Positions 1 to 64,000 of a stretch of 64,000 nucleotides of DNA are shown here, one piece after another. The notes under the pieces were generated by a model. The model saw only the letters and a program-made list of their open reading frames with translations, was not told the origin of the DNA and did not search any database. The stretch covers positions 16,939,237-17,003,236 of the forward strand of contig NC_092672.1 in the NCBI RefSeq assembly GCF_964355755.1. Direction: 5' to 3'. Position 1 is the stretch's first letter. Each line of letters begins with the position of its first letter. The position numbers and the translations under genes were made by a program. Source of the DNA: Antedon mediterranea (lineage: Eukaryota > Animalia > Echinodermata).

Positions 1-1250
1 AGCCATAGTAACTAGTTATCATGTCAAAAAATGAAAGGATCGACATTTGGCCATTTTTCGAAATTTTCCTGCCGGGGACCACAGGAATTTTTTCAACAAA
101 ATAACCAAAATTTCCACCTTTTAAAATTCAATAATTAGGCTATAATATTGCCATTTATGCACATAATATTGTGTTAACATCAACTTATAGAGACATAGTA
201 ACGAGTTATGTCAAAAAAATAAAAGGGTCGAAATTTGGCCATTTTTGCGAAAATTTCCATGCGGGGGACCATAGAGATTTTTTCGAAAAATTGACAAAAT
301 TTCCAATTTCTACAATTCGAAAATTATGCTATAATATTGCAATTTATACAAATATATTGTGCTAACATCATCTTATAGAGCCATAATAACGAATTATGTC
401 AAAAAATAAAAGGGTTGAAAGTTGGCCATTTTTCGATAATTTTCCTGCGGGGGACCATAGTATTTTTTTTCGAAAAATGGACAAAATTTCCAATTTCTAA
501 AATTCGAAAATTATGCTATAATATTGCCATTTATCCAAATATATTGTGATAACATCATCTTATAGAGACATAGCAACTAGTTATGTAAAAAAAAGGGTCA
601 ACAATGGCACCATTTTCCACTTTTTAAAATAAAATAAATATGCTATAATATTTCCATTTATACAGATATATTTTGCTAACATCATCTTATAGAGTCATAG
701 TAACGAATTATATCAAATATTAAAGGGGTTGAAATTTGACAATTTTTCGAAAATTTTCCTGCGGGGGACCATAAGAATTTTTTCGAAAATGAACTAAATT
801 TCCAATTTCTAAAATTCGAAAATTATGCTATAATATTGCCATTTATGCAAATATATTGTGCTAGATCTTATAGAGCCATAGTAAAAAAAATAAAAGGGTC
901 GAAATTTTGCAATTTTTCGAAAATTTTCCTGCGGGGATCATAGGAAGTTTTTTGAAAAACAAACAAAAAATAAACTAAATTTCCACCTTTTAAAATTAAA
1001 TAATTAGGCTATAATATTGCCATTTATACAGATATATTTTGCTAACATCATCTTATAGAGCCATAGTAACTAGTTATGTCATCAAATAAAAGGGTCGAAA
1101 TTTGGCCATTTTTGGAAAATATTCCTGCGGGGGACCACAGGAATTTTTTCGAAAAATAACCAAAATTTCCACCTTTAAACTTCAATAATTAGCCTATAAT
1201 ATTGCCATTTATGCACATATATTGTGTTAACATCATCTTATAGAGCCATA
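1..1250. repeat. AT-rich satellite A array (~188-bp monomer, plus shorter ~135-140-bp deletion monomers)
   Basis: Recurring unit ATCATCTTATAGAGCCATAGTAACTAGTTATGTCAAAAAATAAAAGGGTCGAAATTTGGCC...TGCGGGGGACCATAGG...GCTATAATATTGCC; TATAATATTG recurs at ~141, ~330 and ~517. Confidence 0.95.
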
Positions 1251-2058
1251 TAGTCCAGTCAATCTATGACAAAAAAAGGCGTAACCCAAAACAAATTGCA
1301 ATAGTTTCCAAACCTTTTTTATTTGATTCTATAAGCATCTGGGAAGATCATTTCCAAAATCTACCAAAATCGGTTCAGTGGAACATACTTTTTAAGGGGT
1401 TTTAAGGTCATAGGGGTCAAATTACACATTTTTCTATTTGGAAAACTACTAGGCGTAGCATGTTAATTTTGGTGTCAAACTATTCAGAAGACCCATATTT
1501 ATATGTACTCTAATGAAACCTTTTTACCAAAAATTACAGGAAAGCATGTTTTTGACCTTTGACCTATTTTATTGTATATATTCGTATATTCGTATCTTAG
1601 TAACCAGTGGGCGTAGATGAGCGTTATTTGCGTCAAACTACTCATAAGGTCAATGTTTATATTAGTTCTAATGGAAAAGATTCGTGTAAAATGACCGGAA
1701 GTCATTATTTTGACCTTTGACACATATTCATTATTTTAGATTTCTCAGTAACTACATTTTTTATATCTCAGTAACCACTAAGCACAACTTCGTCAATTTT
1801 GTGTCAAAAGATTCAGAAGACTCATATTTATATTCACTATAGGCCTAATGAAAAAGTTTTTTTTAAAATGGATAGAAACTATGTTTTTGACCTTTGACCT
1901 ATTATACCAGTATATTTGTTTATATTTACTCTAATTAAAACAAATGCAAATGTACAATATAACCGAAAATCATTATTTTGACCGTTAACATTTTCTAGTC
2001 GTGTCATGAATAAATCTCGGGTCTCGAGTATAACATTTTAAATTTGACCAAATAATAA

Positions 2059-5000
2059 GTGCGGCGATCTGACAGACGTTGGGCTGGAATATCAACTGAT
2101 CTTGCCATAGAACAGTGTTTTATGCGTAGCATAAAAACAAGAGGAGGTCTAACAAGAGGGCGAGGATTAACAGAAATTCAACGACTTGTCTGGGTCCTTT
2201 CAACTCCAGTCTGCGCCAAGATCAATCATCCAATGCAAGAGTTCACTAACGTGTTGTATACTACCAGTGAACAACATAAAGAAACAACATATGCCAGAAA
2301 GATGAAGGACCTCAGTGATGTACAAGACATATCAAGGTATCTGACACAGCGAAATCCATTCAATACAGACAGTACAAAATCACTGACAAACATTGCAACT
2401 GGAGTGACGGCACATATCAATGTAGACTGTGACAATGCCAAGCATGTAGCAGGCCCGTAGCCAGGGGGGGGGGTTATGGTTCAGGCGAACCCCCCTTTAC
2501 AGCGACACCCCCCCCCCTTAACCGACTGCGAACCCCTATCCCCGACATCCACAATACCTCACCACACCCTCATCTCTGAAAATCCTCCAAATACAAAAGG
2601 TTGTTTGTAAATTGAAAAATTCGTGAATAACTCATACCTTATTGTTAAACAAATGAATTGGTTGCCGATTTTCACCTGAAAAATAATACGAATTTTTGGT
2701 TCCAGGATGTAACATGATATTGACGTATCATCATCATAGAGGATTATAGTGAATTTAATATACTAGATGGTACGCTCGCTTCGCTCGCGTACCATCTAGG
2801 TCGTGCCCACATATGGTTCTCGAATACATAGTAATTTCAGCGTAAAAAAACTGGCGATTTCAAAATGTAGGCCTACGTACCGCATGACTATAAAACATTT
2901 ATTTATGTATTTATGTAGTCAACCAAAATTAGCACCGTGCGAATTACTTCCAAAAGAGAAACTTCTCACAAAATGAGTCCAAATGTTTCATTTGGACTCA
3001 TTTAAACAAACCCAATTTGTATTTTGTATCTAACATTATTGAGGGTTGGGTTTTTTTTTTTAATAGGCCTATAAATAACACTAAATAGAGTAAAACATTT
3101 CCGATTTAATAACTGTTAAAATTGTCACTGTCATAGTCGATTGAAATAGTAAAGTACATGTAACGATACACCATCACGACGTTTATATTTTTTTGTAATT
3201 ATTAATTAATACAAACGTTGAGAAGCAACTATCAGTAATAAAGTATTATTATTATTATGTGTTTATAATCTAAAAGTAGGGGCTACCCACACTCACAGTA
3301 ATAAAGTTTATTAGTATATTTGTTTATATTATAATAAACAGTAGGCCTACCAACGCACACAATAAGAAATTTGCGATTCAAATGGCTATCAAAAGTGGTT
3401 AATACCTATTTACAGTATTGTATAGCTTTACAATACTATTTATGTTTATTCTCAAAGGGCCCATAAATTGACCTACTTGTGTTAAATCATGGAGGTATGC
3501 AAGCATGGTTAAACCAAATAATTTGGAATGTTCCATTCATCGCAAATCAATACATTTGTATAAACGTATATTAAATCTATCAAAATAGTATTTTTTAAAG
3601 AAAATCGGCCTGTCTTCAACATTATGATACTCTACTCGAGCTGTTCAACCGGTTTTCAGCTATTAAAAACAATTATCGTAGGAGGAGATAGGAAAATGCG
3701 AAGTATCCTCGTATTATTGTGTACAGGTATTTTTCATGAGGACATCCATTAGACAGTGTATACCACGATTGGAAAACACCCCTATTTGGGGCAAATGGTT
3801 GAACCTAAATTCGTTTTAATTGTCAATAACTAATTATCTAACTAAATTTAATTAGTAAACAGGGTTACATCAGGTGGTTAAAATCAGTACCGAGATTATA
3901 ACCAACTTTATATACCATCGAGTACACATTCTAGAAATACCGAATACCAATTGTTTATTCAAAGTCAAACTGTAACTAATCCCTCACTATTCAATCAAAA
4001 TGTTATTATACTACTATATTATTGAAAAATGGATTGCGTGACTTGAAAATAGATTGATATTAAAATGTAATAAAGACACGTTCTTGTCTGGTTATTAGGT
4101 ATGCATGCTCTGATAAAGCAGAGGATTATTTTTGTAGCGTTCCATTTAAAATAGATTTTATTACAAAGAAATATTTTGGTTGTGAAGGTCGTTTTAACAA
4201 TTAGGCTAATATCAAAACATTCAACAATGATAAAATGCCCTACAACTCTGTAACTACTTTATGACTAAGCCTATCAAGTTCCGTGTCCGGATGGTATACG
4301 ATGAAATGGAACTCAATTTCAAATTAGTGGCAGAAACAACATTTAGTATGAAATTAAGGCTGTTGCCCGGGCCACAAGGGAAACACAGTGACAGTGGGAC
4401 AGTGACCCAAATACTTAGTGTCCGAACCCCCCCCCCCTTGACAGATCCTGGCTACGGCCCTGTGTAGGTCAACAAATTGTGCAATCAATGACAAACCAAA
4501 AGGTCGCCGACTACACATTTCGGAAAAAGAGCCAATCCATTACAATGAACTCTAAAAGCGCATTGAAGATAAAAGATGATGTGGTCAATGTAGATCCTTT
4601 ACTTCTATTTCAACGACTTGTAACTGCCGGCACAAGATGCGATAATGTATCAGATATATTTAGATTGTTTGAATCACCAGATATGATGAGGTCTGCAAAT
4701 AAAGCTAGTTTAGCTGATAGTTTGTGGTCAACAGCAATCGAGGTTGCTCCAGAACCTCCTGATCAAATTCAGTACGTCTTAGATGGAGGAGCACTACTTC
4801 ATAACATTCCATGGACAAGAGGGGCTTCAGGGGTGACATTATGAGAGTATACACTAAATATGTTTCTCACAAATATGGAAAATCCATTGTTGTTTTTGAT
4901 GGGTACGATAACTCACTAAGTACAAAAGACTGTACACATACAAGGAGAAGTGGTGGTGGTGTTGTAGCTGTACACTTTGACCAATCTATGACCTTACAAA

Positions 5001-5962
5001 CCAAAAAAGAAGAATTTCTGTCAAACGTTCAAAACAAACAAAGATTCATTAAGATTTTGGGAAATAGTCTTGAAAAAGAAGGTTGTACTGTTCACCACGC
5101 AGAAGCTGACGCTGACTATCTTGTGTCGAAGATGGCTCTGTCCTACGCAGAACAAATAGGCACGGTTGTCATCGCAGATGATACAGATATCCTGGTCCTT
5201 CTTATCCACCATGGTGGTCACACCAAACATAATGTATGGTTCAAGCCAAACCAAAGGAAAGAAACTAAAAAGGTGCAACGATGTTGGAACATTGCGGCAA
5301 CAAGACTTGACCTTGGCAGCAATGTTTGTAAATATATCCTATTTTGTCACGCGTTCCTTGGATGTGACACGACATCGCGATTTTTTGGTATTGGGAAAAT
5401 CAAAGCAGTAACTAAAGTAAGAAGTGACTGTTTCTTTTCTGAACAAGCCAAAGTGTTTATGACTTGTAAGGAAAACAGACAGGAGGCAATTGCAGCGGGT
5501 AATAACGCCATTTTGTCTTTGTATGGTAGCAGCGATAATGAAAACCTAGATGAATTGAGGTTTCGTAAATTTCATGAAAAGACTACATGCAGTACTAAAG
5601 CAGTTCATCCACGTTCTTTACCCCCAACGGCATCAGCGGCAACGTATCATAGTCTAAGGGTGTACCAACAAGTTCAAGTTTGGCTTGGAAATGAAGAAAA
5701 TGTACCTCCAGATAAATATGGATGGAAGATCAGCCAAGGCAGGATGATACCATATTTGACGGACAACCCCCCAGCACCACAATTGCTCCTACAAATCATA
5801 AGATGCAAATGCAAAACAGGCTGCTAAAATATGAAATGCAGCTGTAGGAACAATGGATTAGATTGCTCCATGGCATGTAGTGAGTGTCGAGGTGTATGCG
5901 CAAACATTTCACTAGATGATAATGAATATACCGATTCTGAAGATTCAACAATGGGTTTGTAA
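2059..5962 (+). pseudogene. Academ transposase C-terminal part (TDLAIEQ..MRSIKTRGGL segment, XPG/FEN1-like PIN nuclease domain, C-terminal CXC/Cys-rich finger), disrupted
   Basis: Removing 2450-4462 plus one TSD joins ORF 2059 to ORF 4479 in frame (NAKHVGQQIVQSMT). Motifs VLDGGALLH, VVFDGY, HAEADAD, DDTDILVLL, HAFLGCDTTSRFFGIGK, LPPT, YGW. Frameshift near 4820-4840. In-frame TAA at 5825-5827 splits CKCKTGC*NMKCSCRNNGLDCSMACSECRGVC; natural stop at 5960-5962. The N-terminal transposase region is missing. Confidence 0.85.
2450..4462. mobile_element. Non-autonomous hAT-like element (5-bp TSD, hAT5-like) nested in the Academ ORF
   Basis: TIRs CAGGCCCGTAGCCAGG (2450) and CCTGGCTACGGCCCTG (ends 4462), 15/16 match; subterminal GAACCCCCC motifs; TSD TGTAG at 2445-2449 and 4463-4467; no transposase ORF inside. 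Confidence 0.8.
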
Positions 5963-7949
5963 AGTCAGACGATTGGTAAATATTCTCTACCAGGCCTATT
6001 TGGATATTTTTCTGTTTTGTGTGTTTTTAGAGTAAATATAAACAGAATAATGAATAGTTAAATGTTATCTTAGGTGCTGGTCTATGAAGAAATATAACAC
6101 CAATATATTGCCCCAATTACTAAACGTTTTCTGGATAGACATCAAAGGTAAAAATAATTACTTTCGCATTGACTATATACACAGACATTTTTTATTAGAG
6201 TGGATGTCCTTCTGAGTTGTTTGACACAAAAAATGCTCATCTAAACCCATAGTTCACAAAGATACAAATATATAAATATAATAGTTGAAAGCTTCCGGTC
6301 ATTTTCTGTAAAAATAGTTTCATTAGAGTAAATAAATATGGTTCTTCTGAATCGTTTAACACAAAAGTTACGCTTATTGGTCACCGAGATACAAAAAATA
6401 AATTTAGTGAGATATGAAATAAAGAATATATGTTAACGGTCGAAACGATGACTTTTTCATTAGAGTGAATATAAGCATAGACCTTTTGAATATTTTGACA
6501 CAAAAAATGCTCATCTACGCCCATTGGTTACAAAGATATGAATATACCAATATAATAGGTCAAAGGTCAAAAGAGTAGTTTCCGGTCATTTTTTGTAAAA
6601 AGTTTTATTATAGTGAATATAAATAAGGGTCTTCTGAATTGATTAACACAAAAATTACGAAGTTACGACTATTGGTCACCGAGATACAAAAAATTTAATT
6701 AGTAAAATAATATAAAATAATGAATATATCTCAAAGGTCAAAATGATGTCGTCTGGTCATAATACACAAAACGTTTTTATTAGAGTGAATATAAACATAG
6801 ACCTTCTGGGTATTTTGACACCAAAAACGCTTGTTTACGCCCAGTGGTTACCGAGATATGAATATGCCAAAATAATAGGTCAAAGGTCAAAAACATGGAT
6901 TCCGGTCATTTTTGATAAAAAAACTTTCATTAGAGTGAATATAAATATGGGTCTTCTGAATTGTTTGACACCAAAATTACCAAGTTCGGCCAAGCGGTTA
7001 CTGAGATATACAAATATATAATTTGACCCTCATGACCTCTTGACCCCTTAAAAAAGTATGTTCCACTGAACCGATTTTGGTAGATTTTGGAAATGTTTCT
7101 TCCAGGAACATATAGAATCAAATAAAAAAGGTTCGGAAACTATTGCAATTTGTTTTGGGTCTATCGGTAGATTGACTGGACTAATAGTAACTAGTTATCA
7201 TGTCAAAATATGAAAGGATCGACATTTGGCCATTTTTGGAAAATTTTCCTGCGGGGGACCACAGGAATTTTTTCAAAAAAATAACCAAAATGTCCACCTT
7301 TTAAAATTCAATAATTAGGCTATAATATTGCCATTTATGCACATATATTGTGTTAACATCATCTTATAGAGACATAGTAACGAGTTATGTCAAAAAATAA
7401 AAGGGTCGAAATTTGGCCATTTTTGCGAAAATTTCCCTGCGGGGGACCATAGAGATTTTTTCAAAAAATGGCGAAAATTTCAACTTTTTAAAATTCAATA
7501 ATTATTCCATTATATTGGCATATATGCAAATATATTGTGTTAGCATCATCTTATAGAGCCATCGTAACTAGTTATGTCAAAATATAAAAGGGTCAAAATT
7601 TAACAATTTATCGAAAATTTCGCTGCGGGGGACCATAAGAATTTTTCAAAAAATGGCCAAAATTTCCACTTTTTTAAATTCAGTAATTATGCTATAATAT
7701 TGCCATTTATTAACATATATTATGCTAACATCATCTTATAGAGATATCGCAACTAGTTATGTCAAAAAAATAAAAGGGTCGAAAAGTGGAAGCATTTTCC
7801 ACTTTTTAAAATTAAATAATTATGCTATAATATTGCCATTTATACAGATATATTTTGCTAGCATCATCTTATAAAACCATAGTAACGAATTATGTCCAAA
7901 AATAAAAGGGTTGAAATTTGGCCATTTTTCGAAAAATTTCTTTGCGGGG

Positions 7950-17941: not shown

Positions 17942-18229
17942 GCTGATCTATCTCTCTCTCGCTGATCTATCTCTTTCTCGCTGATCTATCTCTCTCTCGC
18001 TGATCTATCTCTCTCTCGCTGATCTATCTCTCTCTCGCTGATCTATCTCTCTCTCTCGTTGATCTATCTCTCTCTCGCTGATCTATCTCTCTCTCTCGCT
18101 GATCTATCTTTCTTTCGCTGATCTATCTATCTCTCTCTCTCGCTGGTCTATCTTTCTCTCGCTGATCTATCTATCTCTCTCGCTGATCTATCTCTCTATC
18201 GCTTATTTATCTATCTCTCTCGCTGATCT
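11835..18229. repeat. Minisatellite B array, unit ~17-23 bp CGCTGAT(CTAT)1-2(CT)n, with pure (CT)n tracts
   Basis: Directly visible tandem repeat; lines 14041-14760 recur at 15361-16080 (1320-bp higher-order period). Confidence 0.97.
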
Positions 18230-18266
18230 CACGGCAGTTTCAAACGCGATATCCGAGACACAAAGT
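18230..18266 (+). other. Left end: RSS-like signal, heptamer CACGGCA + 21-bp spacer + nonamer-like ACACAAAGT
   Basis: Heptamer 18230-18236, spacer 18237-18257, nonamer 18258-18266. The block CGAGACACAAAGTG matches the right-end block CGAGACAAAAAGTG but lies 9 bp further from the terminus. Confidence 0.75.
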
Positions 18267-18890
18267 GTTTACAACGCGCTTTTGATTGATACGCCTGGCG
18301 CGAGCCTTGAGCAGCTATTTATAGCCCACCAACATCGAGCGAAATGTTTACATTAGCTAGCTATAAACAGAGAGTGTATCATACGAAGTAAATACAGTCT
18401 TACAATGACAAATTAATAAAGTTTTCCTCGAATCTTACAGTGTTTGCTTTATTATTGTATTTTGTATTAGGGAAAATTGTCTAGGATTAAAAAATATTAT
18501 TAAAAAAGCGAAATTTTAACGATGTTTGCGATAGTTTCAAAAGCTGAAAATATACATAAATAGCGCCCTCACGGCGAAAGTTTATCGTCGCGGTAAGTTC
18601 AAGCTTTTGATCGTCTGATAGCAAATCTCTGCAATTTTTTCGAGCAACACCGTTAATTCCAAGAGAAAGCGGAGACTTTATTCTTTATTTAGCTCAAAAT
18701 TCAGGCTGACGTCTACTTTCAAATTGATTTGAGCTAAATTTGAAATTGACTTATTTCTGTTCAAAATTCCAGTGATTTTATAGGTAAAAATAGGCCTAGG
18801 GCAAAGTTAATTATATATTTTTTAAAGAATTGTGTATTGGTTTTGCATTGACTGTATGTGGTATGTTACTGTTATTTATTGTCTTGTGAA

Positions 18891-21800
18891 ATGGAGTACC
18901 ATACATATGCATTGAGTAATTTATGTCGTGTATGTGGTGTCAAGTTAACACGAAATCAGCGAAAATTTGACCTAACTAAAGTAAAAGATAGCGTCCTGAC
19001 ATTTTTAAATATCGATTTAACCCATGAAAACAAAGATGTACATCCACCATTCATTTGCAAGAACTGTCAATTTTCAAGCTATAACAAGGTTAGCACAACT
19101 CAAAGGTACATCTGGAGACAACACACACAACAATCATGTTTCACATGTTATTTATTATCAGAACAGTCAAAACCAGGTAAGAGACTAAAACAAGTAAAAC
19201 TCAACACATTATTTTCTGAAACAGAATGTGACGTTATTCCATCAAAATTTACAGTCAATGACAAAATCAATTCTGAACCTTTCATTTGCCAAATATGCAA
19301 CTCGATTTTGTCTTTCAACAGTCTTGAGTCAAACTGTTCACATCACTATTGTTCTAGTTGTATGTATAATTTGTTTAGTACCCTCCATGTTAACGTATGT
19401 TCATGTCTTGTGTGCGCAAAGCCAATGCACATGCTGGAATTTAAACCCGCCTCCCAAATTGTAATAGAGTCTCTAAAATCACTAGAATTACAATGCTCGT
19501 GCAATAAGTTCATAAAATACTCTCAACATCAGAGACATATTTGTGAACACCAGACAACTAAAGAAGTGGTTTATCATAATGTTTCAAAAGCTGTATCAGT
19601 GTTAGAGAAATCACTAGAAGATAGTCATGTCTCCCAAACAATACAAACGTTTGCAGAAAAAGTTGTTTACAATCAACTAAAGAAAAGTAAGGAAATGCTG
19701 ATTGCAACAAATGGTCGGGTGAGTGCTTTAAAACAAATTCTGTAATTATCATATTGCATGTTATAAAAAGTAGATTAATATTATTATAACAGAATTGTTA
19801 GCATAAAACATACAAATACAATTCTTATCTACAGCCAGCAAAGATTGCTATCATACCAAACACCAAAGTCTCAAGTGATAAGGCCAGTTCTCGAACTGTT
19901 TCAAGACGAGCAAATAGCATCAGCAGCATCATAAAATCAGTTGGCAATAGTGAGGCTGGTGATTTCCATCAAAAAGTGTACTCAGCCAAACATATGAGTC
20001 AAGCGGTCTTAAAAGCAGCCAACATAGCATCAACTTCGTCTATAGATACAGATAAGGCTCTGGCAATGGTGTCAGACTGCCATCTGGCATGGAACCAGCT
20101 ACGAAAGCTAAGAAGGTAAACAAACAATTATGTGATTAAATAAAACCATGCATGAATACAGGCATTTTAGACACAGTCAAGTATGTCTAGTAATAAAGCG
20201 AGACTACATTATTAATCCTTTTTATGTACTAGATATGTGGAGAAGGGGACAATACCATCAGAGAAAAGGATGCGGCAGCGGCAAAATGATCTCATTGGGG
20301 ATTATTTTGAATCCACAATGGAAATGCTATGTTTTAGGTCTGAGACGTCCCCAGACGGGATAGAATTAAGATCAACGCCTACTGTCAAACTGAAAAACAT
20401 TAAAAAAGTTGTATTTTCATATCTTGATGAACACTCAAGGTACGCTGAAGTTAAATTTTAATATGTGCTTACAAAGTGTAGAACTTACTTTTTAGGACTT
20501 TACTTTTGTTCCTATGGATTTGCTATGGAAATAAAAGTTAAAAGAAATTAATTAAAAACTGAATTAATATTTACTAAATTTTTTTACAGACTGAACAACC
20601 TATCTCCCAATAATAACGAGATTTGGATAAAGTTTGGCGGGGATAAGGGAGGTGGAAGTACCAAATTTGAGGTACAGATATGTAGCCTCGCCAAACCAAA
20701 TTCAATTAACAACATCATCGTCGTACTAATATTTGATGCCCCTGACATGATGTTTAATATTAACCGGACTCTTCCGGAAGTGGCCCACCAAGTTGTTGCT
20801 TTGAACGGGGAAAAATGGCGGTAAGAATACAACTAGTATATCAACTTAATTATGTGGATGCGTATACAAGTAATAAAATAAAAATATATGTATAATTTCT
20901 TTCAGCAATTACACACTGAGAGTTTTCTGTTTTGGGGACTATGAGTATCTAACAAAACTCTATGGATTAAATGGACCAAATGGTAAACTATTAAATTATT
21001 TTATCATCATTTAATTTATACAAAATCTTTCTAAGCCAATTTTATTTATACTGTATTACTGCATATTTTAGCATTTTTAAACATTGTGAAAAAATTGGAA
21101 TACTTTTAGCTCGATACTGCTGTCTCTTTTGTGAAAAACCAAAAGCAGAAATGCAATTAAAGGCACCACCCGCCAAACAGCGATCATTGGCTTCAATCAG
21201 AGCCAACTATAGAATGTTTATGGAAGATGGCGGAATTGAAAGCCGATCTAAGGATGTTTCCATGAGCGTTGTTAATAATCCCTTAGTATCAATTGAGGTA
21301 GATCATGTAAGTACATCAGTTTTGTTTTTAATTATCTTTATATTAGAGAAACAAATGTACTTACTTCATTATATGGCACTGTTGGTATTAAAATTTATAT
21401 CTTTTAGGTGTCTGTTCCTAGCCTGCACTTGTCATTGGGCATATTCAAGAAGCTCTTTGATATGCTTGAGACGGAGGCGCACAGCATAGATTGCCTCATA
21501 TATTCCCTAAGGAAAAATGGAGAACTTGATGACACTTCTGAATCAAAGTTTGATAAAATAATTCAACATCAGATCCAAACACAAATTGATATCAAAGAAA
21601 AGATTGAAGAAAAGAAATTAAAGTTGACTGAGATGGAGGATGCAATGCCATTAATCTATCTTAAAGGAAGTGTTGATGGTAGCATCATTACCAATGTGGG
21701 AAAGATAGTCAGATTGAGAGAAGAGATTGAGTCACTGGTAAGTTACTCAAACAATAAATGACATAGATGCGTCTTGCCAGACACATACTCTAAAGACAAA

Positions 21801-22771
21801 ACTTGTATTATATTTTATTTTACAGACAAAATGCATGGAAAATGGGCTTCCATTTGGAACGGGTCCAATTGTCACATCACTGGAGCGTGTGCTACAAAAA
21901 AATCGCATCCAACGGCAAGCCTATCATGGTAAATCATTTATTGGTAACCATGTTCATAAATGTTGTCAGGTAAATTAACTATTCTTTTAATTGATATTGT
22001 TTCAACTGTTAATTATTAAAATTGTAGTTTTTAAAATGTATATTTGTTTTTAATAGGACCATGTTAGGAATGAACTAGTGAATGCTCCACTACATGAAAT
22101 GAAAATTCAAGAAGCTGAGATTCCTATCGGAAAAATTCAGCTAATTGACAAAAGAGTAAAAGAATTGGTCACCAAGTACGATGCACTCCTTTCAAAATTT
22201 TCTAGGGTTCACAATAACTTGAATCATTCAAAACCTGTCACAGATGTTGATATTCAAGGAAATGGTAATGTAATTATGCTTACCTTTCAAGGTATTCCTT
22301 AGACATGCCATTGTTTCTTTTCCTACAACACACTGCAACTGTTTCTTTTCTCTTCTACAAAAAAAATTCAGATAAAGCCATAAAAGACTTTATGGAGGAA
22401 TATCGAAAAACCAACAAAAGTATATCTCCAAAATTACATATGCTCGAGGAACATGTCATTCCCCAATTAAAGGCTTGGAGATTTGGTCTGGGACTGGTTA
22501 GCGAGCAAGGTGGGGAGTCTATTCACGCCGCGCTTAATAAAAGGAAAAGAACAGTTGCTGGGATGCATGACAGACTTGGACAGTTAACATCCATGATGCG
22601 GTCACATGCAATTACCACTCAGCCATGCATAATAGAAGAAATAGTTGAACCCAAAAGAAGAAAAATTGGTAACAATTTACACTTTATTGATTACACTATT
22701 TGTGCTTTTTAGCTCCCTGCTCACCAAAAATTAAATAAACCTGTTTATATTTTTCAGAAAAAGAAGAATAA
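18891..22771 (+). CDS. RAG1-like DDE transposase (Chapaev-type), 11 exons, ~937 aa, no frameshift or premature stop in the manual splice model
   Basis: Exons, all with GT-AG introns and consistent phases: 18891-19718, 19835-20115, 20233-20439, 20590-20820, 20906-20982, 21110-21306, 21408-21737, 21826-21969, 22057-22264, 22372-22668, 22758-22771 (2814 nt including TAA; the last micro-exon is least certain, alternative stop at 22712). Motifs: H-x7-CRVCG...HPPFICKNC...W..H....CFTC (Chapa finger), RING CQIC..CSHHYCSSC..CLVC, ZFA-like CSC..HQRH, NGRP, ALAMVSDCHLAWNQLRKLRR, WIKFGGDKGGG (first D), FGDYEYLTKLYGL (second D), YCCLFC, PSLHLSLG, FIGNH, KLHMLEEH, GLVSEQGGESIH (E), basic tail PKRRK. Confidence 0.88.
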
Positions 22772-23917
22772 AGTACACGACAATGAATACGAAATAAAAG
22801 AAAATATAGGCTTACTGATAAATCTGACGGAGTGCCATCTTCTTCTTTATTATGGATTCTCTTATGAACCACACTTGCATCAATAAAGTAGTCGTACTTG
22901 TTTGTGTTGGTGGTATTTTTGGAACCTGTAGTACAATTTTTGAATTATAAATATTTATCATCATTATTTAAAAAAATGGTGGACTAGCGATTGAAATACA
23001 TGATGAAATATTATATTATAATTAGGACTATACTGTCAAAATTAAAATCAAAATTTTATTTTTTATTCTACAAATGCAATGCTGTTGCTGCCATAGTTTA
23101 GTAATATTCAAGCCATAGGAAGATAGACTATGATATTTTCACATTTTCTACTGTAGAATAAATTAGGCCCTCATGAAAGCTAGTTAGTAAGTATACCTAT
23201 CCTCCTAGGCCTACCTATGTCTTGATGGTACCATATTAAAAAATTAGGCCTAGCCTAGCTAGATAGAGCTGTTACTAAAGCCTGGCCCTGCTGATTTCCC
23301 CTCTTAACGACATATACTTGGGCTAGGCCTACTAAGAGTATATTATTCTAGGCCTAGGCCTATACAGTATTTATTTTTCGTGGCTTAAACCTAGTACTAG
23401 GTGACAAACCTTTGTTAGGCCTAGGCCTTTAGCAGCACACCCACGTGTGCAAAACAGGCAAATGGGCCCCGACTTTCTGTGTATATAATTATTAAACTGG
23501 ATTAGACGTCAGCGAGATTTTTTAAATATTGTTTATCAAGTTTTTGAATTTTCACATCGACTAGGCGCCGATGTTTATGTAAATTGCAAAAAAAATATAT
23601 AACCTCACCATTACCCTGTAATTAAACTGCTATTTTTTACTGTTTTTTGTCGCAAAATAGACGTAAGATTTCAATACTCATATCTCGTGAAGTCTTGAGA
23701 AACGGAGTGACCGCTGGCTTCGAATATCAATTACACGCCTTCTTCTTCGAATATAACATGAATATTCATTAAATTTTCAATTATAACACTGTCTATTGGT
23801 CAGTTTATTCCCTCTCTTTTACCAGGGTAGTAAAAATAGTCTTCCGGGTATTTAAACTAGCGCCCTCTATAACATAAAATAAGAAAAAGCGAGCATCGAA
23901 ACTATAGAGGGCTCACC

Positions 23918-23945
23918 ACTTTTTGTCTCGCTGGAAACTGCCGTG
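23918..23945 (-). other. Right end: RSS-like signal, heptamer CACGGCA + 12-bp spacer + nonamer-like ACAAAAAGT
   Basis: On the minus strand: CACGGCA (23945-23939), GTTTCCAGCGAG (12 bp, 23938-23927), ACAAAAAGT (23926-23918); 7/9 identical to the RSS nonamer ACAAAAACC. Confidence 0.8.
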
Positions 23946-35384
<11,439 letters not shown>

Positions 35385-41719: not shown

Positions 41720-43867
41720 TGTTGAACCCACAAATGTGAAAACGCCAACAAATGTGAAAACAACCACAGATGTGAAAACGCATCACCCACAAATGTGAAA
41801 ACAATCACAAATGTGAAAACGCATCACCTACCACAACCACAAATGTGAAAACGCATCAACCACAAATGTGAAAACAGCGCCCACAAATGTGAAAATGATC
41901 ATCGCCCACAAATGTGATAACGCCCACAAATGTAAAAACAAGAGAGACTTTTTCGCCCACAAATGTAAAAAAATTCAGATCAAATTTAATGCTAGATTCA
42001 GACAAACATTATATCATGATTGTATTGAGTTGTTTGTTCACGATACGTCTGTTAGGGTCGTCGTTAACACGTTGGATTATTATCATTTGCTGCTCGTGCG
42101 CGCGATTTTTGCACGTTAACTCGTTTGTTTAATGAACGTAATAGTTCAAGACGATATTTGTTATTTGCTGCGCGCGTGCACGATACTTCAAGGTCAAGGC
42201 CATGTTATATCATTGTTGCTTCTACTGTGTCGTTGTTGGCTTACTATTATGTACGTATAGTTATAAGTCGATGTTCGATATTTTTTTTTTGCGCGCACAC
42301 GATACAACAAGGTCAAGGTTAAATTGCTACTTGTATGTAGTGTGTGGTTATTAACTCGTTGGCTTACTGTTATGTACGTATAGTTCAAGTCGATGTTCGA
42401 TTCGATGTTTTTGTGCACGTACACGATACCACAAGGTCAAGGTCATATATAATATTGCTACTTGTGGTTGTTAACTCGTTGGCTTATTGTTATGTACGTA
42501 TAGTTCCAAGTCGATGGTCGATTCGATTTTTTTTTTGTGCGCGTGCACGATACTACAAGGTCATATATCATTGCTGCTTGAAGTGCAGTTGGGCTTACTA
42601 TATTAGTATTATGTACGTATTATAGCTCCAAGTCGATGCTCGGTGTACACGATACTACAAGATCAATGCTATACTCGTCGTTCAGTTATTGCAGTAGTTC
42701 CTAATGTTCAATTTTTTTACAAAACTATAACCACAAGATAATAATACAAGAGCTAGAGCAAGACCAACTAATACAAGAATATTTCTTTATTTTAGAGCGA
42801 TAAACAAATTGTAACATAGAATAATACCGTAACACCAATATCCAACCAAACATAATACACGATACGATAGCATCAAACTTGTCACGAACATGTATTCTAT
42901 AAAACATACTATGAAATCTATAACAATTATACTAATGGACAAAACTTCCTACTATACTACTATTTACATTCGTGGTTTAATCTGATGCTTATTGTTTAAT
43001 TTGTATATCTATTTTTAGCGGATAATTATAAAGATATACGGAGAATAATATTACCTATTGAATGCATTAAAATTTAACTGATTTACTATCAAACGTATAT
43101 TCGACAATTTAAAGAAATAGAATTAATTAGCAATAGTATATATGACCTTGATCTTGTGGTATCGTGTACGTGCACAAAAACATCGAATCGAACATCGACT
43201 TGAACTATACGTACATAACAGTAAGCCAACGAGTTAATAACCACACACTACATACAAGTAGCAATTTAACCTTGACCTTGTTGTATCGTGTGCACGCTCA
43301 AAAAAACATCGAACATCGACTTATAACTATACGTACATAATAGTAAGCCAACAACCACACAGTAGAAGCAACAATGATATAACATGGCCTTGACCTTTAA
43401 GTATCGTGCACGCGCGCAGCAAATAAAAAATATCGTCTTGAACTATTACGTTCATTAAACAAACGAGTTAACGTGCAAATATTGCGCGCATGAGCAGCAA
43501 ATTATAATAATCCAATGCGTTAACCACGACCCTAACAGACGTATCGTTAACAAACAATTATTGAAACAACTCAATACAATCATGATATAATGTAGTACCT
43601 CGATCAAAATTGTTTGAGTCTACCATTAAATTTGATCTGATTTTTTTTTTTACATTTGTGGCCGAAAAATTCTCATTTTTTTTTACATTTGTGGGCGTTA
43701 TCACATTTGTGGGCGATGATCGTTTTCACATTTGTGGGCGCTGTTTATTACATTTGTGGTTGATTCGTTTTCACATTTGTGGTTGTTTTCACATTTGTGG
43801 GTGATGCGTTTTCACATTTGTGGTTGTTTTCACATTTGTGGGCGTTTTTACATTTGTGGGTTCAACA
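41720..43867. mobile_element. Non-autonomous Ginger-like (Ginger2/TDD-type) foldback element
   Basis: Termini TGTTGAACCCACAAATGT / ACATTTGTGGGTTCAACA; 5-bp TSD GGGGA (41715-41719 / 43868-43872); ~730-bp TIRs (41720-~42450 vs ~43140-43867) with about ten tandem CCACAAATGTGAAAAC units at each end; no integrase ORF. Superfamily inferred from TGT..ACA ends and TSD length only. Confidence 0.7.
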
Positions 43868-50873: not shown

Positions 50874-51435
50874 CTTTCTCGCTGATATATCTCTTTCTTG
50901 CTGATCTATCTCTCTCTCTCGCCGAGCTATCTCTCTCGCCGATCTATCTCTCTCTCGCTGATCTATCTCTCTGTCGCTGATCTATCTCTCTCTCGCTGAT
51001 CTATCTCTCTCTCGCTGATCTATCTATCTCTCTGTCGCTGATCTATATATCTGTCGCTGATCTATCTATCTCTCTGTCGCTGATCTATCTATCTCTCTCT
51101 CGCTGATCTATCTATCTCTCTCTCACTTATCTATCTATCTCTCTCTCTCGCTGATCTATCTATCTCTCTCTCGCTGATCTATCTATCTCTCTCTCGCTGA
51201 TATATCTATCTCTCTCTCGCTGATCTATCTATCTCTCTCTCGCTGATCTATCTATTTCTCTCTCGCTGATCTACCTATCTCTCTCTCGCTGATCTACCTA
51301 CCTCTCTCTCGCTGATCTATCTATCTCTCTCTCGCTGATCTATCTATCTCTCTCTCGCTGATTTATCTATCTCTCTCTCGCTGATCTATCTATCTCTCTC
51401 TCGCTGATCTATCTATCTCTCTCTCGCTGATCTAT
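50874..51435. repeat. Minisatellite B array
   Basis: Same unit between the two insertions. Confidence 0.95.
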
Positions 51436-53368
51436 ATAATAACAAGCCATGGGTCACGAAAGGCGTTAAATTACTGTTGTGTGAGAAACGTAAAGCCTTT
51501 AAGATGGGCGACTCTAATCGTATGAAAATATTGACTAGAGAGATTAAATCTGAAATAATGAAACAGAAGAACATTTATAGGAAAAAAGTTGAACATAACT
51601 TCAGGTCTAATAATATGAAACAAGTTTGGCAGGGTATTAAACTTATGAGTGGTTACACAAACGGTGGTAATACACCCACCTCGATTCCGAATGTTACTGT
51701 GCAATATGTTAATGAGTTAAATGAATTTTATAACCGTTTTAATGTTCATGATTTTAAAAAAGAAAGAGAGGCTCTATTTAGCTTGTGTCGGGTGACTGAA
51801 GATGATCCCAAATTTAGTATAAGCATTTCTGATGTACATAACGAATTCATGAAACTCAATTCATCGAAGGCTGCTGGGCCGGATAGAATCCCACCACGAG
51901 TACTTAAGATCTGCTCTCCTCACCTTGATGGTATATTTACATTTATTTTCAATATGTGTCTTTCTTATCATGCGTTTCCGGATATTTGGAAACTTTCATG
52001 CATAATACCGGTACCTAAGAAACCTAAGATTAACAGCATGAATGATTTGAGACCCGTTGCACTCACGTCTGTCGCGATGAAAATATTGGAACGTATTATT
52101 TTAAAAATTATGCAACCTTATGCTGCAAAAGTGTTAGACCCGTTGCAATTTGCTTACCGATCACTCCGTCGTACCAGTGATGCGATTTATTTTAAATTAA
52201 ATAAATTGTATTAACATCTAGATAATGTAAAGAAAGGCCACTCGGCACGTATTATGTATTTTGATTTTCAGTCTGCGTTTAATACCATACAACCCCATAT
52301 CTTAGCAGACAAAATGTTGAATATGGAGTTTCCCCGTCCGATTGTTCGTTTAGTTTTAAATTTCATTTGTGATAGAAAACAATTTGTTAATATTAATGGT
52401 GTTAAGTCAGAAATCGTAACCTCTGACACCGGTGTTCCTCAGGGTACTGTCAACGCACCTAAATTATATTCCTTGTATACGGCCGATTACAGATCTTTAA
52501 ATGATGAGCTTTGCCTCGTTGTTAAATTCGCTGATGACACTAGTACTATTGGTCTCATAGTTTCAAACAATGATGAAAATTATCGTAGCGAAATACAAAG
52601 ATTTGTTAAATTTTGTGACGATAATTATCTCCAAATAAATGCATAAAAAACAAAGGAGATGATCATTGATTTTAGGACTAAACATAAATTTAATTTTCAA
52701 CCAATCACTATCAAAGGTAACGGAATTGAAATTGTTGACCAGTACAAGTATCTAGGAATTGTTTTCAATGATAAACTGAGTTGGGGAGACTATATAGACT
52801 TCATCAGCAAAAAATTAAATCCCAGAATGTATTGTATGAGAACTTTATATAAATTTAACTCCTGTGATTTGATGTTACTTTCGTTCAATAGATCCGTTAT
52901 ATGTAGTGTTTGGACGTATTGCCTCTTCTGTTGGGCTGGTAATGTTACCGGAGGGAATAAAGGACGCCTTGAAACTTTCATCCGTCGGGCTGGTAAAATG
53001 ATTGGTCTGGAACTGCCTTCCTTTACCGATGTGCACCTAGAACACCTAAAGAAAGATTTCGAACGTATTGAGTCGGATGCCTCTCATCCTCTCCACAAAG
53101 TGATCATAGACCAACTTAATCCAAGTGGTAGATTGAGGCTCCTCAGTGTGAAAACAAATCGATTTGCTAAATCCTTTATTCCCTCCGGTATCATCCAGTA
53201 CAACAGGAAGTCAAGAAGATAATTTTATCTTGTAATTTTTTAGATGTTTTTATATGAATGGTTTTATGCTATATTTGTTTTTTATTGTGTTTTCTTTGTT
53301 ATTATGACGAGCAATGAATTTCCTTTTTGAGGATCAATAAAACTTATATTATCTTATCTTATCTTATC
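51436..53368 (+). mobile_element. 5'-truncated non-LTR retrotransposon (LINE; Rex1/Babar-like, CR1/L2 group)
   Basis: Starts abruptly at NNKPWVTK; RT coding region, short T-rich 3' UTR, AATAAA and a (TTATC)4 tail at 53349-53368. Confidence 0.85.
51438..53222 (+). pseudogene. LINE ORF2 reverse transcriptase, two in-frame nonsense codons
   Basis: ORFs 51477, 52254 and 52659 are in one frame, separated by TAA at 52212-52214 and 52644-52646. Motifs KAAGPD, IIPVPKK, DLRPVALTS, LDPLQFAYR, DFQSAFNTI, GVPQG, KFADD, KTKEMIIDFR, YKYLG. Confidence 0.9.
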
Positions 53369-56300
53369 TCTCTCTCGCTGATCTATCTATCTCTCTCTCG
53401 GTGATCTATCTATCTCTCTCTCGCTGATCTATCTATCTCTCTCTCGCTGATCTATCTATCTCTCTCTCGCTGATCTATCTATCTCTCTCTCGCTGATCTA
53501 TCTCTCTCTCGCTGATCTATCTATCTCTCTGTCGCTGATCTATCTCTCTCTCGCTGATCTATCTATCTATCTCTCGCTGATCTATCTCTCTCTCGCTGAT
53601 CTATCTATCTCTCGCTGATCTATCTCTCTCTCGCTGATCTATCTCTCTCGCTGATCTATCTCTCGCTGATCTATCTCTCTGTCGCTGATCTATCTCTTTC
53701 TCGCTGATCTATCTCTCTCTCGCTGATCTATTTCTCTCTCGCTGATCTATCTCTCTCTCGCTGATCTACCTCTCTCTCGCTGATCTATCTCTCTCTCGCT
53801 GATCTATCTCTCCCCCTCTCGCTAATCTATCTCTCTCTCTCTCTCTCTCGCTGATCTATCTATCTCTCTCTCGCTGATCTATCTCCCTCTCTCTCGCTGA
53901 TCTATCTATCTCTCTCTCGCTGATCTATCTCTCTCTCTCGCTGATCTATCTATCTCTCTCTCGCTGATCTATCTCTCTCTCGCTGATCTATCTCTCTCTC
54001 TCGCTGATCTATCTCTCTCTCGCTGATCTATCTCTCTCTCGCTGATATATCTCTCTCTCCCTGATCTATATCTCTCTCGCTGATCTATCTATTTCTCTCT
54101 CGCTGATCTATCTCTCTCTCTGATCTATCTATCTCTCTCTCGCTGATCTATCTCTCTCTCGCTGATCTATCTATCTCTCTCTCTCGCTGATCTATATCTC
54201 TCTCGCTGATCTATCTATCTCTCTCTCGCTGATCTATCTCTCTCTCGCTGATCTATCTCTCTCTCGCTGATCTATCTATCTCTCTGTCGCTGATCTATCT
54301 CTCTGTCGCTGATTTATCGCTCTCTCGCTGATCTATCTCTCTCTCACTGATCTATCTATCTCTCGCTTATCTATCTCTCTCTCGCTGATCTATCTCTCTC
54401 TCGCTGATCTATCTCTCTGTCGCTGATCTATCTCTCTCTCGCTGATCTATCTCTCTCGCTGATCTATCTATCTCTCTGTCGCTGATCTATCTCTCTCTCG
54501 CTGATCTATCTATCTCTCTCGCTGATCTATCTCTCTCTCGCTGATCTATCTATCTCTCTCTCTCGCTCTCTCGCTTATCTATCTCTCTCTCGCTGATCTA
54601 TCTCTCTCTCGCTGATCTATATCTCTCTCGCTGATCTATCTCTCTCTCGCTGATCTATCTCTCTCGCTGATCTATCTCTCTCTCGCTGATCTATCTCTGT
54701 CTCGCTGATCTATCTATCTCTCGCTTATCTATCTCTCTCTCGCTGATCTATCTCTCTCTCGCTGATCTATCTATCTCTCTCTCGCTGATCTATCTCTCTC
54801 TCTCGCTGATCTATCTATCTCTCTTTCGCTGGTCTATCTCTCTCTCTCGCTGATCTATCTATCTCTCTCTCGCTGATCTATCTCTCTCTTGCTGATCTAT
54901 ATCTCTCTCTCTCTCGCTGATCTATCTCTCTCTCGCTGATATATCTCTCTCTCGCTGATATATCTCTCTCTCGCGGATCTATCTATCTCTCTCTCGCTGA
55001 TTTATCTCTCTCTCGCTGATCTATCTGTCTCTCTCTCTCGCTGATCTATCTCTCTCTCGCTGATCTATCTATCTCTCTCTCTCGCTGATCTATATCTCTC
55101 TCGCTGATCTATCTATCTCTCTCTCGCTGATCTATCTCTCTCTCGCTGATCTATCTATCTCTCTGTCGCTGATCTATCTTTTTCTCGCTGATCTATCTCT
55201 CTCTCGCTGATCTATCTCTGTCTCGCTGATCTATCTATCTCTCGCTTATCTATCTCTCTCTCTCGCTGATCTATCTCTCTCTCGCTGATCTATCTCTCTC
55301 TCTCTCGCTGATCTATCTATCTCTCTGTCGCTGTTCTATCTCTCTCTCACGCTGATCTATCTATCTCTCTCTCGCTGATCTATCTATCTCTCTCTCGCTG
55401 ATCTATCTATCTCTCGCTGATCTATCTCTCTCTCGCTGATCTATCTTTCTCTCGCTGATCTATCTCTCTCGCTGACCTATCTCTCTCTCGCTGATCTATC
55501 TCTCTCGCTGATCTATCTCTCTCTCGCTGATCAATCTATCTCTCTGTCGCTGATCTATCTCTCTGTCGCTGATCTATCTCTCTCTCGCTGATCTATCTCT
55601 CTCTCACTGATCTATCTATCTCTCGTTTATCTATCTCTCTCTCGCTGATCTATCTCTCTCTCGCTGATCTATCTCTCTGTCGCTGATCTATCTCTCTCTC
55701 GCTGATCTATCTCTCTCTCGCTGATCTATCTCTCTCTCGCTGATCTATCTATCTCTCTGTCGCTGATCTATCTCTCTCTCGCTGATCTATCTATCTCTCT
55801 CTCGCTAATCTATCTATCTCTCTCTCGCTGATCTATCTATCTCTCTCTCTCGCTCTCTCGCTGATCTATCTCTCTCTCGCTGATCTATCTCTCTCTCGCT
55901 GATCTATATCTCTCTCGCTGATCTATCTCTTTCTCGCTGATCTATCTCTCTCGCTGATCTATCTCTCTCTCGCTGATCTATATCTCTCTCGCTGATCTAT
56001 CTCTCTCTCGCTGATCTATCTCTCTCGCTGATCTATCTCTCTCTCGCTGATCTATCTCTGTCTCGCTGATCTATCTATCTCTCGCTTATCTATCTCTCTC
56101 TCGCTGATCTATCTCTCTCTCGCTGATCTATCTATCTCTCTCTCGCTGATCTATCTCTCTCTCTCGCTGATCTATCTATCTCTCTTTCGCTGGTCTATCT
56201 CTCTCTCTCGCTGATCTATCTATCTCTCTCTCGCTGATCTATCTCTCTCTTGCTGATCTATATCTCTCTCTCTCTCGCTGATCTATCTCTCTCTCGCTGA

Positions 56301-62300: not shown

Positions 62301-64000
62301 CTGATCTATCTATCTCTCTGTCGCTGATCTATCTCTCTGTCGCTGATTTATCTCTCTCTCGCTGATCTATCTCTCTCTCACTGATCTATCTATCTCTCGC
62401 TTATCTATCTCTCTCTCGCTGATCTATCTCTCTCTCGCTGATCTATCTCTCTGTCGCTGATCTATCTCTCTCTCGCTGATCTATCTCTCTCTCGCTGATC
62501 TATCTATCTCTCTGTCGCTGATCTATCTCTCTCTCGCTGATCTATCTATCTCTCTCGCTGATCTATCTCTCTCTCGCTGATCTATCTATCTCTCTCTCTC
62601 GCTCTCTCGCTGATCTATCTCTCTCTCGCTGATCTCTCTCTCTCTCGCTGATCTATATCTCTCTCGCTGATCTATCTCTCTCTCGCTGATCTATCTCTCT
62701 CGCTGATCTATCTCTCTCTCGCTGATCTATCTCTGTCTCACTGATCTATCTATCTCTCGCTTATCTATCTCTCTCTCGCTGATCTATCTCTCTCTCGCTG
62801 ATCTATCTCTCTCTCTCTCGCTGATCTATCTCTCTCTCGCTGATCTATCTATCTCTCTCTCTCGCTGATCTATCTCTCTCTCTCTCGCTGATCTATCTAT
62901 CTCTCTTTCGCTGGTCTATCTCTCTCTCTCGCTGATCTATCTATCTCTCTCTCTCGCTGATCTATCTCTCTCTTGCTGATCTATCTCTCTCTCTCTCGCT
63001 GATCTATCTCTCTCTCGCTGATATATATCTCTCTCGCTGATCTATCTCTCTCTCGCTGATCTATCTATCTCTCTCTCGCTGATTTATCTCTCTCTCGCTG
63101 ATCTATCTATCTCTCTCTCTCGCTGATCTATCTCTCTCTCGCTGATCTATCTATCTCTCTCCCTCGCTGATCTATATCTCTCTCGCTGATCTATCTATCT
63201 CTCTCTCGCTGATCTATCTCTCTCTCGGTGATCTATCTATCTCTCTGTCGCTGATCTATCTTTTTCTCGCTGATCTATCTCTCTCTCGCTGATCTATCTC
63301 TGTCTCGCTGATCTATCTATCTCTCGCTTATCTATCTCTCTCTCTCGCTGATCTATCTCTCTCTCGCTGATCTATCTCTCTCTCTTTCTCGCTGATCTAT
63401 CTCTCTCTCGCTGATCTATCTATCTCTCTGTCGCTGATCTATCTCTCTCTCACGCTGATCTATCTATCTCTCTCTCGCTGATCTATCTATCTCTCTCTCG
63501 CTGATCTATCTATCTTTCGCTGATCTATCTCTCTCTCGCTGATCTATCTCTCTCTCGCTGATCTATCTCTCTCGCTGACCTATCTCTCTCTCGCTGATCT
63601 ATCTCTCTCGCTGATCTATCTCTCTCTCGCTGATCTTTCTATCTCTCTGTCGCTGATCTATCTCTCTGTCGCTGATCTATCTCTCTCTCGCTGATCTATC
63701 TCTCTCTCTCGCTGATCTATCTCTCTCTCACTGATCTATCTATCTCTCGTTTATCTATCTCTCTCTCGCTTATCTATCTCTCTCTCGCTGATCTATCTCT
63801 CTGTCGCTGATCTATCTCTCTCTCGCTGATCTATCTCTCTCTCGCTGATCTATCTCTCTCTCGCTGATCTATCTATCTCTCTGTCGCTGATCTATCTCTC
63901 TCTCGCTGATCTATCTATCTCTCTCTCGCTGATCTATCTATCTCTCTCTCTCGCTGATCTATCTATCTCTCTCTCTCGCTCTCTCGCTGATCTATCTCTC
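53369..64000. repeat. Minisatellite B array running off the window end
   Basis: Same unit; internal block duplications of ~1.36 kb (GATCAATCTATC at ~55530 and ~56890) and ~0.62 kb (ACACTCGCTGATCTATAT at ~59341 and ~59962). Confidence 0.97.

Follow-up and report, generated by a model that had tools for sequence, protein, structure and literature searches.

The 64-kb stretch of Antedon mediterranea DNA analysed here (the window, to whose positions coordinates refer unless a locus is named) contains an intact, spliced RING-type Chapaev DNA transposon that constitutes a new crinoid family and is neither a RAG1-like (RAG1L) element nor a Transib, an assignment made by published hallmarks and domain layout. 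The element forms a 5,716-bp island (18230-23945) within a CT-rich satellite and encodes one transposase gene (18891-22771), which an earlier sequence-only reading had described as colinear with full-length RAG1 and as carrying a GRP motif at the position of the nonamer-binding domain (NBD). We consider it probable that the element is a RING-type Chapaev of RAG1-type fold that works as a RAG2-free cut-and-paste dimer, with a module encoded by exon 2 acting on conserved inner blocks at the two ends.

Chapaev transposons are characterised by CAC..GTG ends, 3-4-bp target site duplications (TSDs) and C(2)C, LH and H(4)H motifs (PMC4079192), and in two Chapaev subgroups the Chapa finger is followed by a RING (Kapitonov and Koonin 2015, PMC4411706). 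The window's element has 5'-CAC...GTG-3' terminal inverted repeats (TIRs), a likely 4-bp TSD (one insertion, in satellite), a Chapa finger and a DDE core bearing the C(2)C, LH and H(4)H motifs. It thereby resembles RING-type Chapaevs (Chapaev-1/2_BF, -1/2_NV, -4/6/7_HM; CMC or CMCT clade), which have Chapa, RING and a finger at the C2H2 position, the same motifs in the DDE core, CAC..GTG termini and a 4-bp TSD; judged only by eye, relatives from Hydra (P0018, for example) look like Chapaev-4/6/7_HM. The RAG1-like domain architecture of Chapaevs is already known from the literature: supplement 5 of PMC4411706 aligns Chapaev Chapa, RING and C2H2 with RAG1, from which it follows that the RAG1 colinearity of the window's gene is the known RING-type Chapaev layout. 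In addition, PMC12730594 describes C(2)C and H(3-4)H as shared motifs, and Chapa has been linked to the RAG1 NZD (bioRxiv 10.64898/2026.01.24.700457). The colinearity proposed from the sequence stands with respect to domain order and core alignment (family profile E 2.5e-19; RAG1 503-1007), while the layout is not special to this element. Relative to RING-type Chapaevs as published, the differences are an NBD-like module, offset bipartite ends and antisense RNA here and a 5-bp TSD in the relative L013, none of which was found in the literature searched; the available parts of PMC3014272, PMC4455052, PMC8355894 and bioRxiv 10.1101/2021.09.26.461848 cover Chapaev3 features and classification, with nothing on an NBD or on ends.

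The spliced frame of the gene comprises 11 exons and 2,814 nt, corresponding to 937 amino acids (aa) and a stop codon with no internal stops, and the ~937-aa open frame with ten introns that had been assembled by hand is therefore upheld. Each of the ten introns follows the GT-AG rule, measures 85-150 nt and is AT-rich (67-85%), and retaining any one of them would stop the frame. Exon 1 (18891-19718, plus strand) encodes the Chapa/NZD finger (aa ~3-86), a C3HC4 RING (133-175), a small finger at the ZFA position (202-220) and the residues TNGR; exon 2 (19835-20115, plus strand) encodes the NBD-like arm and helices, including the conserved R301, and the start of DDBD-like helices. The remaining exons (20233-22771, plus strand; exons 3-7 at 20233-20439, 20590-20820, 20906-20982, 21110-21306 and 21408-21737, exons 8-11 at 21826-21969, 22057-22264, 22372-22668 and 22758-22771) encode the RAG1-type catalytic core with D457/D527/E883, C546/C549, H614 and H857/H862 and a helical insertion (aa ~612-722). 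Every motif named in the sequence-only reading was recovered in the order given there: TNGRP (273, created across junction 1), SSRTVSRRAN (294), ALAM (351), LAWNQLRKLRR (360), GGD (D457), GDYE (D527), CLFC (546-549), SLH (H614), HMLEEH (857-862) and SEQGGES (878-884). For the last of these, profile alignment identifies the second E, E883, as the equivalent of RAG1 E962.

Splicing is supported by RNA-type contigs, a gene model and homology. None of the runs listed as containing the element is catalogued as RNA, and X5 and X10 were taken as such solely on contigs that skip canonical introns; X5 contigs join introns 3, 5, 6, 8, 9 and 10 (6/10), while for runs X1, X8 and X9 no sense splice joints were found among the listed rows (15/20). 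P0001, a 555-aa NCBI model from Antedon mediterranea, is identical to aa 383-937 except for I450V, R709K and K836E, and therefore uses junctions 3-10. In the distant relative L013, whose introns were compared by flanking codons because of a frame break in its exon 5, introns 1, 2, 3, 5, 6, 8 and 9 are identical in place and phase to those of the window's gene (intron 1 separates G-x from P, and intron 2 interrupts LRKLR); intron 4 lies within 4 nt of its counterpart, intron 7 has the same phase inside a poorly alignable helix, and intron 10 was not found in this comparison. Junctions 1 and 2 thus rest on homology, not RNA. A word search with exon 1 found no longer homologue. Other family members have a core that is intron-free or nearly so (L001 564-3437, L012 748-3527, L004 1960-3966), so that few or no core introns in these contrast with nine or ten in the window and L013; introns have been lost or gained inside the family.

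The catalytic core has relatives in 2,012 clusters at E<=0.001, the named ones coming from echinoderms, hemichordates, lancelet and cnidarians. Among 50 long relatives, D457, C546, C549 and H614 are invariant (50/50 each), and D527 (49/50), H857 (43/44), H862 (42/43) and E883 (40/42) are nearly so. Family profiles align D527 with RAG1 D708, CxxC with C727/C730, HxxxxH with H937/H942 and E883 with E962, and from invariance and fold we infer that D457 is RAG1 D600. The core model (predicted local distance difference test, pLDDT, 94.8) matches RAG1 in Foldseek at E 2e-13, and in VIA its aa 383-929 align with RAG1 503-1007 at Z 22.6 (root-mean-square deviation, rmsd, 3.4; 408 aligned; 15% identity), with scores of 21.4 for BbRAG1L, 20.5 for HzTransib and 11.2 for the P element transposase. 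The core is therefore predicted to have a RAG1-type catalytic fold, and the structural comparison with RAG1, BbRAG1L and HzTransib proposed earlier turns out in favour of the likeness. Pfam DUF1280 is found in the core and in all 29 relatives scanned, and Atlas yielded only unnamed eukaryotic clusters, all below 0.9. The insertion after the LH motif (aa ~612-722, exons 7-8, three helices) has a conserved length across the family and profile matches to coiled coils only. Antedon mediterranea also carries two distant Chapaev-type genes, P0012 and P0032, 32-41% identical to the core, indicating that several Chapaev-type families coexist there.

At the N-terminus, the family profile matches that of RAG1 (E 2.5e-19) and the RAG1 NZD structure 21wb (E 2.4e-11). 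The Chapa finger ligands are conserved (C12, C15, H51, C56, C59, H78, C83, C86), and all C3HC4 RING ligands are present (C133, C136, C149, H151, C154, C157, C172, C175), with weak Pfam matches of the window protein to RAG1_imp_bd (E 0.08) and zf-C3HC4 (E 0.013, score 15.8, below the cut-off of 21). Because a Pfam RING occurs in only 13 of 29 relatives, the RING appears not to be essential family-wide and to be dispensable in many relatives, and any E3 role is putative.

The boundaries of the element are given by 12-bp TIRs, the left starting with CAC (18230-18241, plus strand) and perfectly matching the right (23934-23945, minus strand). These are flanked by likely copies of a 4-bp TSD, ATCT (18226-18229, in CT-rich satellite, and 23946-23949, neither assigned a strand), and the flanks match over these 4 bp only. 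If the flanks are rejoined on the assumption of a 4-bp TSD, the resulting satellite unit has three ATCT and is common (288 of 1,247 units), whereas rejoining them without a TSD gives a four-ATCT unit seen once in 1,247. The flanking 5-bp stretches differ, and a 5-bp TSD could be masked if one G had been lost at the junction. Contigs of other runs begin, end or continue into unrelated flanks exactly at the element termini, as expected of a mobile element present at multiple sites. Over ~5.4 kb, 10 letters separate the window from the main contigs of run X1, and the element is 99.8% identical to other copies in one run; contig depth was not read as copy number or expression. Coding differences among copies include 17 synonymous and 16 non-synonymous changes against 21% synonymous sites, so that the dN/dS (non-synonymous to synonymous rate) comparison suggested earlier gives ~0.25 (p = 1e-4), a crude figure derived from partial (40 of 166 and 40 of 51 rows) and non-independent lists. 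Recent activity of the element is no more than plausible.

Inside the TIRs, each end carries a 14-bp inner block. The left block (18254-18267, plus strand) lies 12 bp inside the TIR and reads, in the style of a recombination signal sequence (RSS), as heptamer, 21 bp and the nonamer-like ACACAAAGT; the right block (23917-23930, minus strand) lies 3 bp inside the TIR and reads as heptamer, 12 bp and ACAAAAAGT. The two blocks are identical at 13 of 14 positions, a match reached by 0 of 3,000 dinucleotide shuffles, and the inner block is 9 bp deeper on the left end than on the right (RSS-style spacers 21 and 12). To examine relatives, a metagenome scan provided 23 family loci, of which a search for CAC pairs covered 18 and end-to-end alignment 10, and 2 had both ends; an earlier metagenome scan with P0001 and a viral scan found no family loci. 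L013 (35-6200), whose best segment matches a Pocillopora protein at 81% identity, has a TIR identical to the window's at 11 of 12 positions, inner-block spacers of 14 and 4 and a 5-bp TSD, and L012 (138-4366) has a 10-bp end offset and no TSD; 0 of 1,500 shuffles did as well in each case. All three complete elements therefore have offset ends (9, 10 and 10 bp), with the left always longer. Three further loci (L008 2141, L011 1753, L014 4065) show right ends with L013's 12-bp TIR and inner-block variants at the same distance. L013 and L012 both have TGGQP at the junction-1 motif, and their inner blocks are not A-tracts, from which it follows that a GRP/A-tract pair is not needed for asymmetry. 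The sequence-only reading had suggested that an NBD-like module may read an A-tract nonamer and enforce the asymmetry; the asymmetry itself is real and common to relatives, two of which have it without this particular pairing. A literature search found no description of offset bipartite ends or of an NBD-like module in Chapaevs, although Repbase Reports papers and Yuan and Wessler 2011, which lay outside it, may bear on this, and family-level end asymmetry together with an NBD-like module looks undescribed.

The candidate reader of these blocks is encoded by exon 2. Its model (pLDDT 90.6) consists of an arm and five helices, those at model positions 19-37, 40-52 and 56-61 being the ones compared with the three-helix NBD fold, and in VIA it aligns weakly with the RAG1 NBD crystal structure 3gnb_A at Z 3.3 (rmsd 4.0, 47 aligned), model residues 8-54 falling gap-free on RAG1 390-438. 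This register puts RAG1 R391-P392-R393 on aa 285-287, where the window has NTK, the family K-P-R (K 27, P 28 and R 40 of 70) and L013 R-P-R; further along, the family has S in 38/71 at T400, R/K in 54/71 at K405 and R in 68/71 at R407, the latter being aa 301. Profile alignment gives another register, with family GGQP on RAG1 GGRP and a 6-residue gap after it, and the two registers may reflect a single indel; the NBD-only chain is not among the profile matches listed. Taken together, these data suggest that the NBD-like module is a family trait whose main hook would be the K-P-R ten residues after the GRP, with the GRP at aa 275-277 unlikely to be the key motif.

The gene is also crossed by a spliced, non-coding antisense transcript, whose strand was deduced from splice signals. 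X5 contigs contain five CT..AC joints that on the minus strand are all canonical introns with strong donors. They delimit, on the minus strand, a first seen exon at 23609-23945 (in X5; no cover in X10), exons at 22816-22925 (3' of the sense stop codon), 22284-22354 (within sense intron 9) and 21365-21506 (sense intron 6 into exon 7), a micro-exon at 20489-20522 (within sense intron 3; CT..AC joints, GT-AG on the minus strand) and a last exon at 18230-20107 that overlaps sense exons 1-2, the antisense exons thus being placed mostly outside the gene or within sense introns. In X10, which comes from a second organism, 4 of the 5 antisense introns have these splice sites and no sense joints are seen; its antisense cover ends at 19141, 10 nt beyond a minus-strand AATAAA. 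The transcript has no ATG open reading frame (ORF) longer than 64 aa and no Rfam match; a RAG2L-type protein on it, at the ProtoRAG position, was rejected on this ORF length. The spliced antisense RNA likely dampens transposase expression. One broad literature search (titles and abstract starts) returned nothing on an antisense transcript for Chapaev, and such a transcript across a Chapaev gene looks undescribed.

By analogy with RAG, BbRAG1L and HzTransib, a RAG2-free DDE dimer would cut at the CAC tips by the RAG/Transib route, with nicking and hairpinning at CAC while the core grips the 12-bp tips, and would integrate with a 4-5-bp duplication. A dimer of the exon-2 module would bind both inner blocks and tilt to absorb one helical turn of offset, so that one left end pairs with one right end through a pivoting NBD-like dimer; less of the DNA contact would come from the GRP at aa 275-277 than from the arm at aa 285-287 and helix 1 (R301 = RAG1 R407).

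Two other assignments of the DNA-reading part need to be weighed against this one. According to the sequence-only reading, the junction-1 GRP would be a working equivalent of RAG1 GGRPR that reads the A-tract nonamer and sets the asymmetry. The profile register with GGQP on GGRP is in keeping with this, the window does have an arginine there and an A-rich block at the 12-bp spacer, and RAG1 GGRPR could equal two Chapaev motifs fused by a ~10-residue deletion. The motif itself is labile, however: the family has T-x-G-(Q/K/R)-P followed by hydrophobics (G 41/49, R 10/49, P 35/49), of 50 relatives, 5 carry GRP and none GRP[RK], and on a quick IQ-TREE tree of 51 proteins GRP requires 5 changes versus 5.8 in shuffles, scattered without clustering. 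Moreover, the RAG motif is GRPR/K by the definition of Martin et al., who doubt GRPP (bioRxiv 10.1101/2023.08.20.553239), whereas the window reads GRPA at 275-278; L013 and L012 carry TGGQP and lack an A-tract, yet their ends are offset; and the VIA register places R391-P392-R393 at aa 285-287. The identification of this GRP with the nonamer-binding position is thus weak, and we regard its role as reader of the nonamer as unlikely. It is slightly less likely still that the inner blocks are read by another part of the protein, for example the Chapa finger with a GGRP(K) hook, while exon 2 only dimerises. A separate GRP does follow directly after Chapa in 15 of 42 relatives, mostly as GGRP and then basic residues, published Chapaevs also carry one there (PMC4411706), and the exon-2 fold match is weak (no Foldseek NBD; VIA Z 3.3); this hook is missing from the window's element, which has KPGKRLK after Chapa, and from 27 of 42 relatives, whereas conservation is much stronger in the basic helix of exon 2, whose distance from the core is that of the NBD (aa 383 = RAG1 503).

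A further alternative is that the element is a true RAG1L or Transib, such as a hypothetical RING-bearing RAG ancestor. It shares with RAG1/RAG1L (ProtoRAG, RAGL-A, AanRAGL) the full order NZD-RING-finger-NBD-DDBD-core (the NBD on a suggestive fold match), a RAG1-type fold (core Z 21-23) and aligned catalytic and Zn residues, and its RSS-like 12/21 ends resemble the bipartite RAGL ends with their 9-10-bp offset (10 bp in PflRAGL-A, bioRxiv 10.1101/2023.08.20.553239; 4/13-bp spacers in AanRAGL, PMC9435367). With Transib it shares the core fold (HzTransib Z 20.5), CAC termini and a single gene, asymmetric ends are reported for Transib subgroup I (PMC9435367), and the 5-bp TSD of L013 is of Transib/RAG length, versus the 3-4 bp given for Chapaev. 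Set against this, phmmer of the core against PDB found no RAG1, BbRAG1L or HzTransib at E<=10, structural alignment gives only 13-15% identity to these three (~15% to RAG1, where ~30% is expected for a RAG1L), and TransibSU is reported to be >30% identical to the RAG1 core, far above the window's core. Unlike RAG1/RAG1L, the element lacks GRPR/K, a CCGHC tail and a RAG2L-like gene, there being no ORF >82 aa between the gene and the right end, and has a long helical insertion after LH, ten introns and a 4-bp TSD; unlike it, Transibs lack Chapa/NZD and RING and have 5-bp TSDs. This alternative is largely refuted, and we consider it highly improbable. For the antisense RNA, read-in from flanking host promoters through cryptic splice sites, with no role for the element, is an appreciable though doubtful possibility. 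Consistent with read-in, X10 has no cover at the right end (23578-23945), so that its first exon differs or is missing, one X5 contig extends past the right end, AT-rich introns easily contain cryptic sites, and contigs cannot give starts or strand; the five canonical minus-strand introns with strong donors, the splice sites shared by two organisms, the nesting of exons mainly in sense introns and the end of X10 cover just past AATAAA speak against it.

Several observations weigh against the assignment of the RING-type Chapaev and its exon-2 module as set out above. On the side of the gene, P0001 starts only at aa 383, X5 contigs show introns 1, 2, 4 and 7 in unspliced form only, so that the junctions expected in RNA are seen in part and the full-length mRNA is a predicted one. 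For the module, the window's own arm is NTK, not RPR; Foldseek with the exon-2 model found nothing at E<=0.001, its 2 rows including no NBD, the VIA match to the NBD ranks 11 of 48,161, level with unrelated helix pairs, and a profile without Chapa and RING gave no separate score for the NBD. As to the ends, complete elements number only three, those of L012 were located via the inner block and without a TSD, and the TSD is 4 bp in this element but 5 bp in L013, each from a single insertion.

In current models, asymmetric ends and an NBD belong to the Transib/RAGL line, and Chapaev is tied to RAG1 via its N-terminal fingers alone. Three Chapaev elements with a 9-10-bp offset, about one DNA turn, and an NBD-like module suggest that RAG's paired-signal rule may be older than thought, and the same evidence supports a common ancestor with the full RAG1 layout. 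We tentatively propose, while leaning somewhat against it on balance, that the Chapaev NBD is a true homologue of the RAG1 NBD with a one-turn pairing rule, that Chapaev and Transib/RAG diverged only after the 12/23 principle and the whole RAG1 architecture had arisen, and that the element is a RAG2-independent analogue of full-length RAG1, self-restrained by antisense RNA. An intact, transcribed, single-gene element 99.8% identical to its copies offers a direct test of a RAG2-free enzyme with NZD and RING, and lets one ask whether left-right pairing is enforced and what NZD and RING do in a transposase.

Near the two ends of the element, AGCGCCCTC occurs once each (18562 and 23859), as does a CTGACGTC-type site (18705 and near 23505); both may be promoter elements that the two ends have in common and that drive transcription inward. 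Elsewhere in the window, large CT-rich satellite arrays with 19/23-bp units occupy ~11700-35400 and 53400-64000, one of them being the insertion target. A probable second DNA element at ~1190-7190 has long degenerate inverted repeats around broken ORFs (2059-2457, 4419-5824), and its 340-aa ORF has no Pfam match. A ~2.1-kb element at 41720-43867 has long inverted arms that are 94-97% complementary and lies in a tandem array of ~180-bp units, and 51408-53219 contains a reverse-transcriptase fragment of an element resembling a long interspersed nuclear element (RVT_1 E 4e-6).

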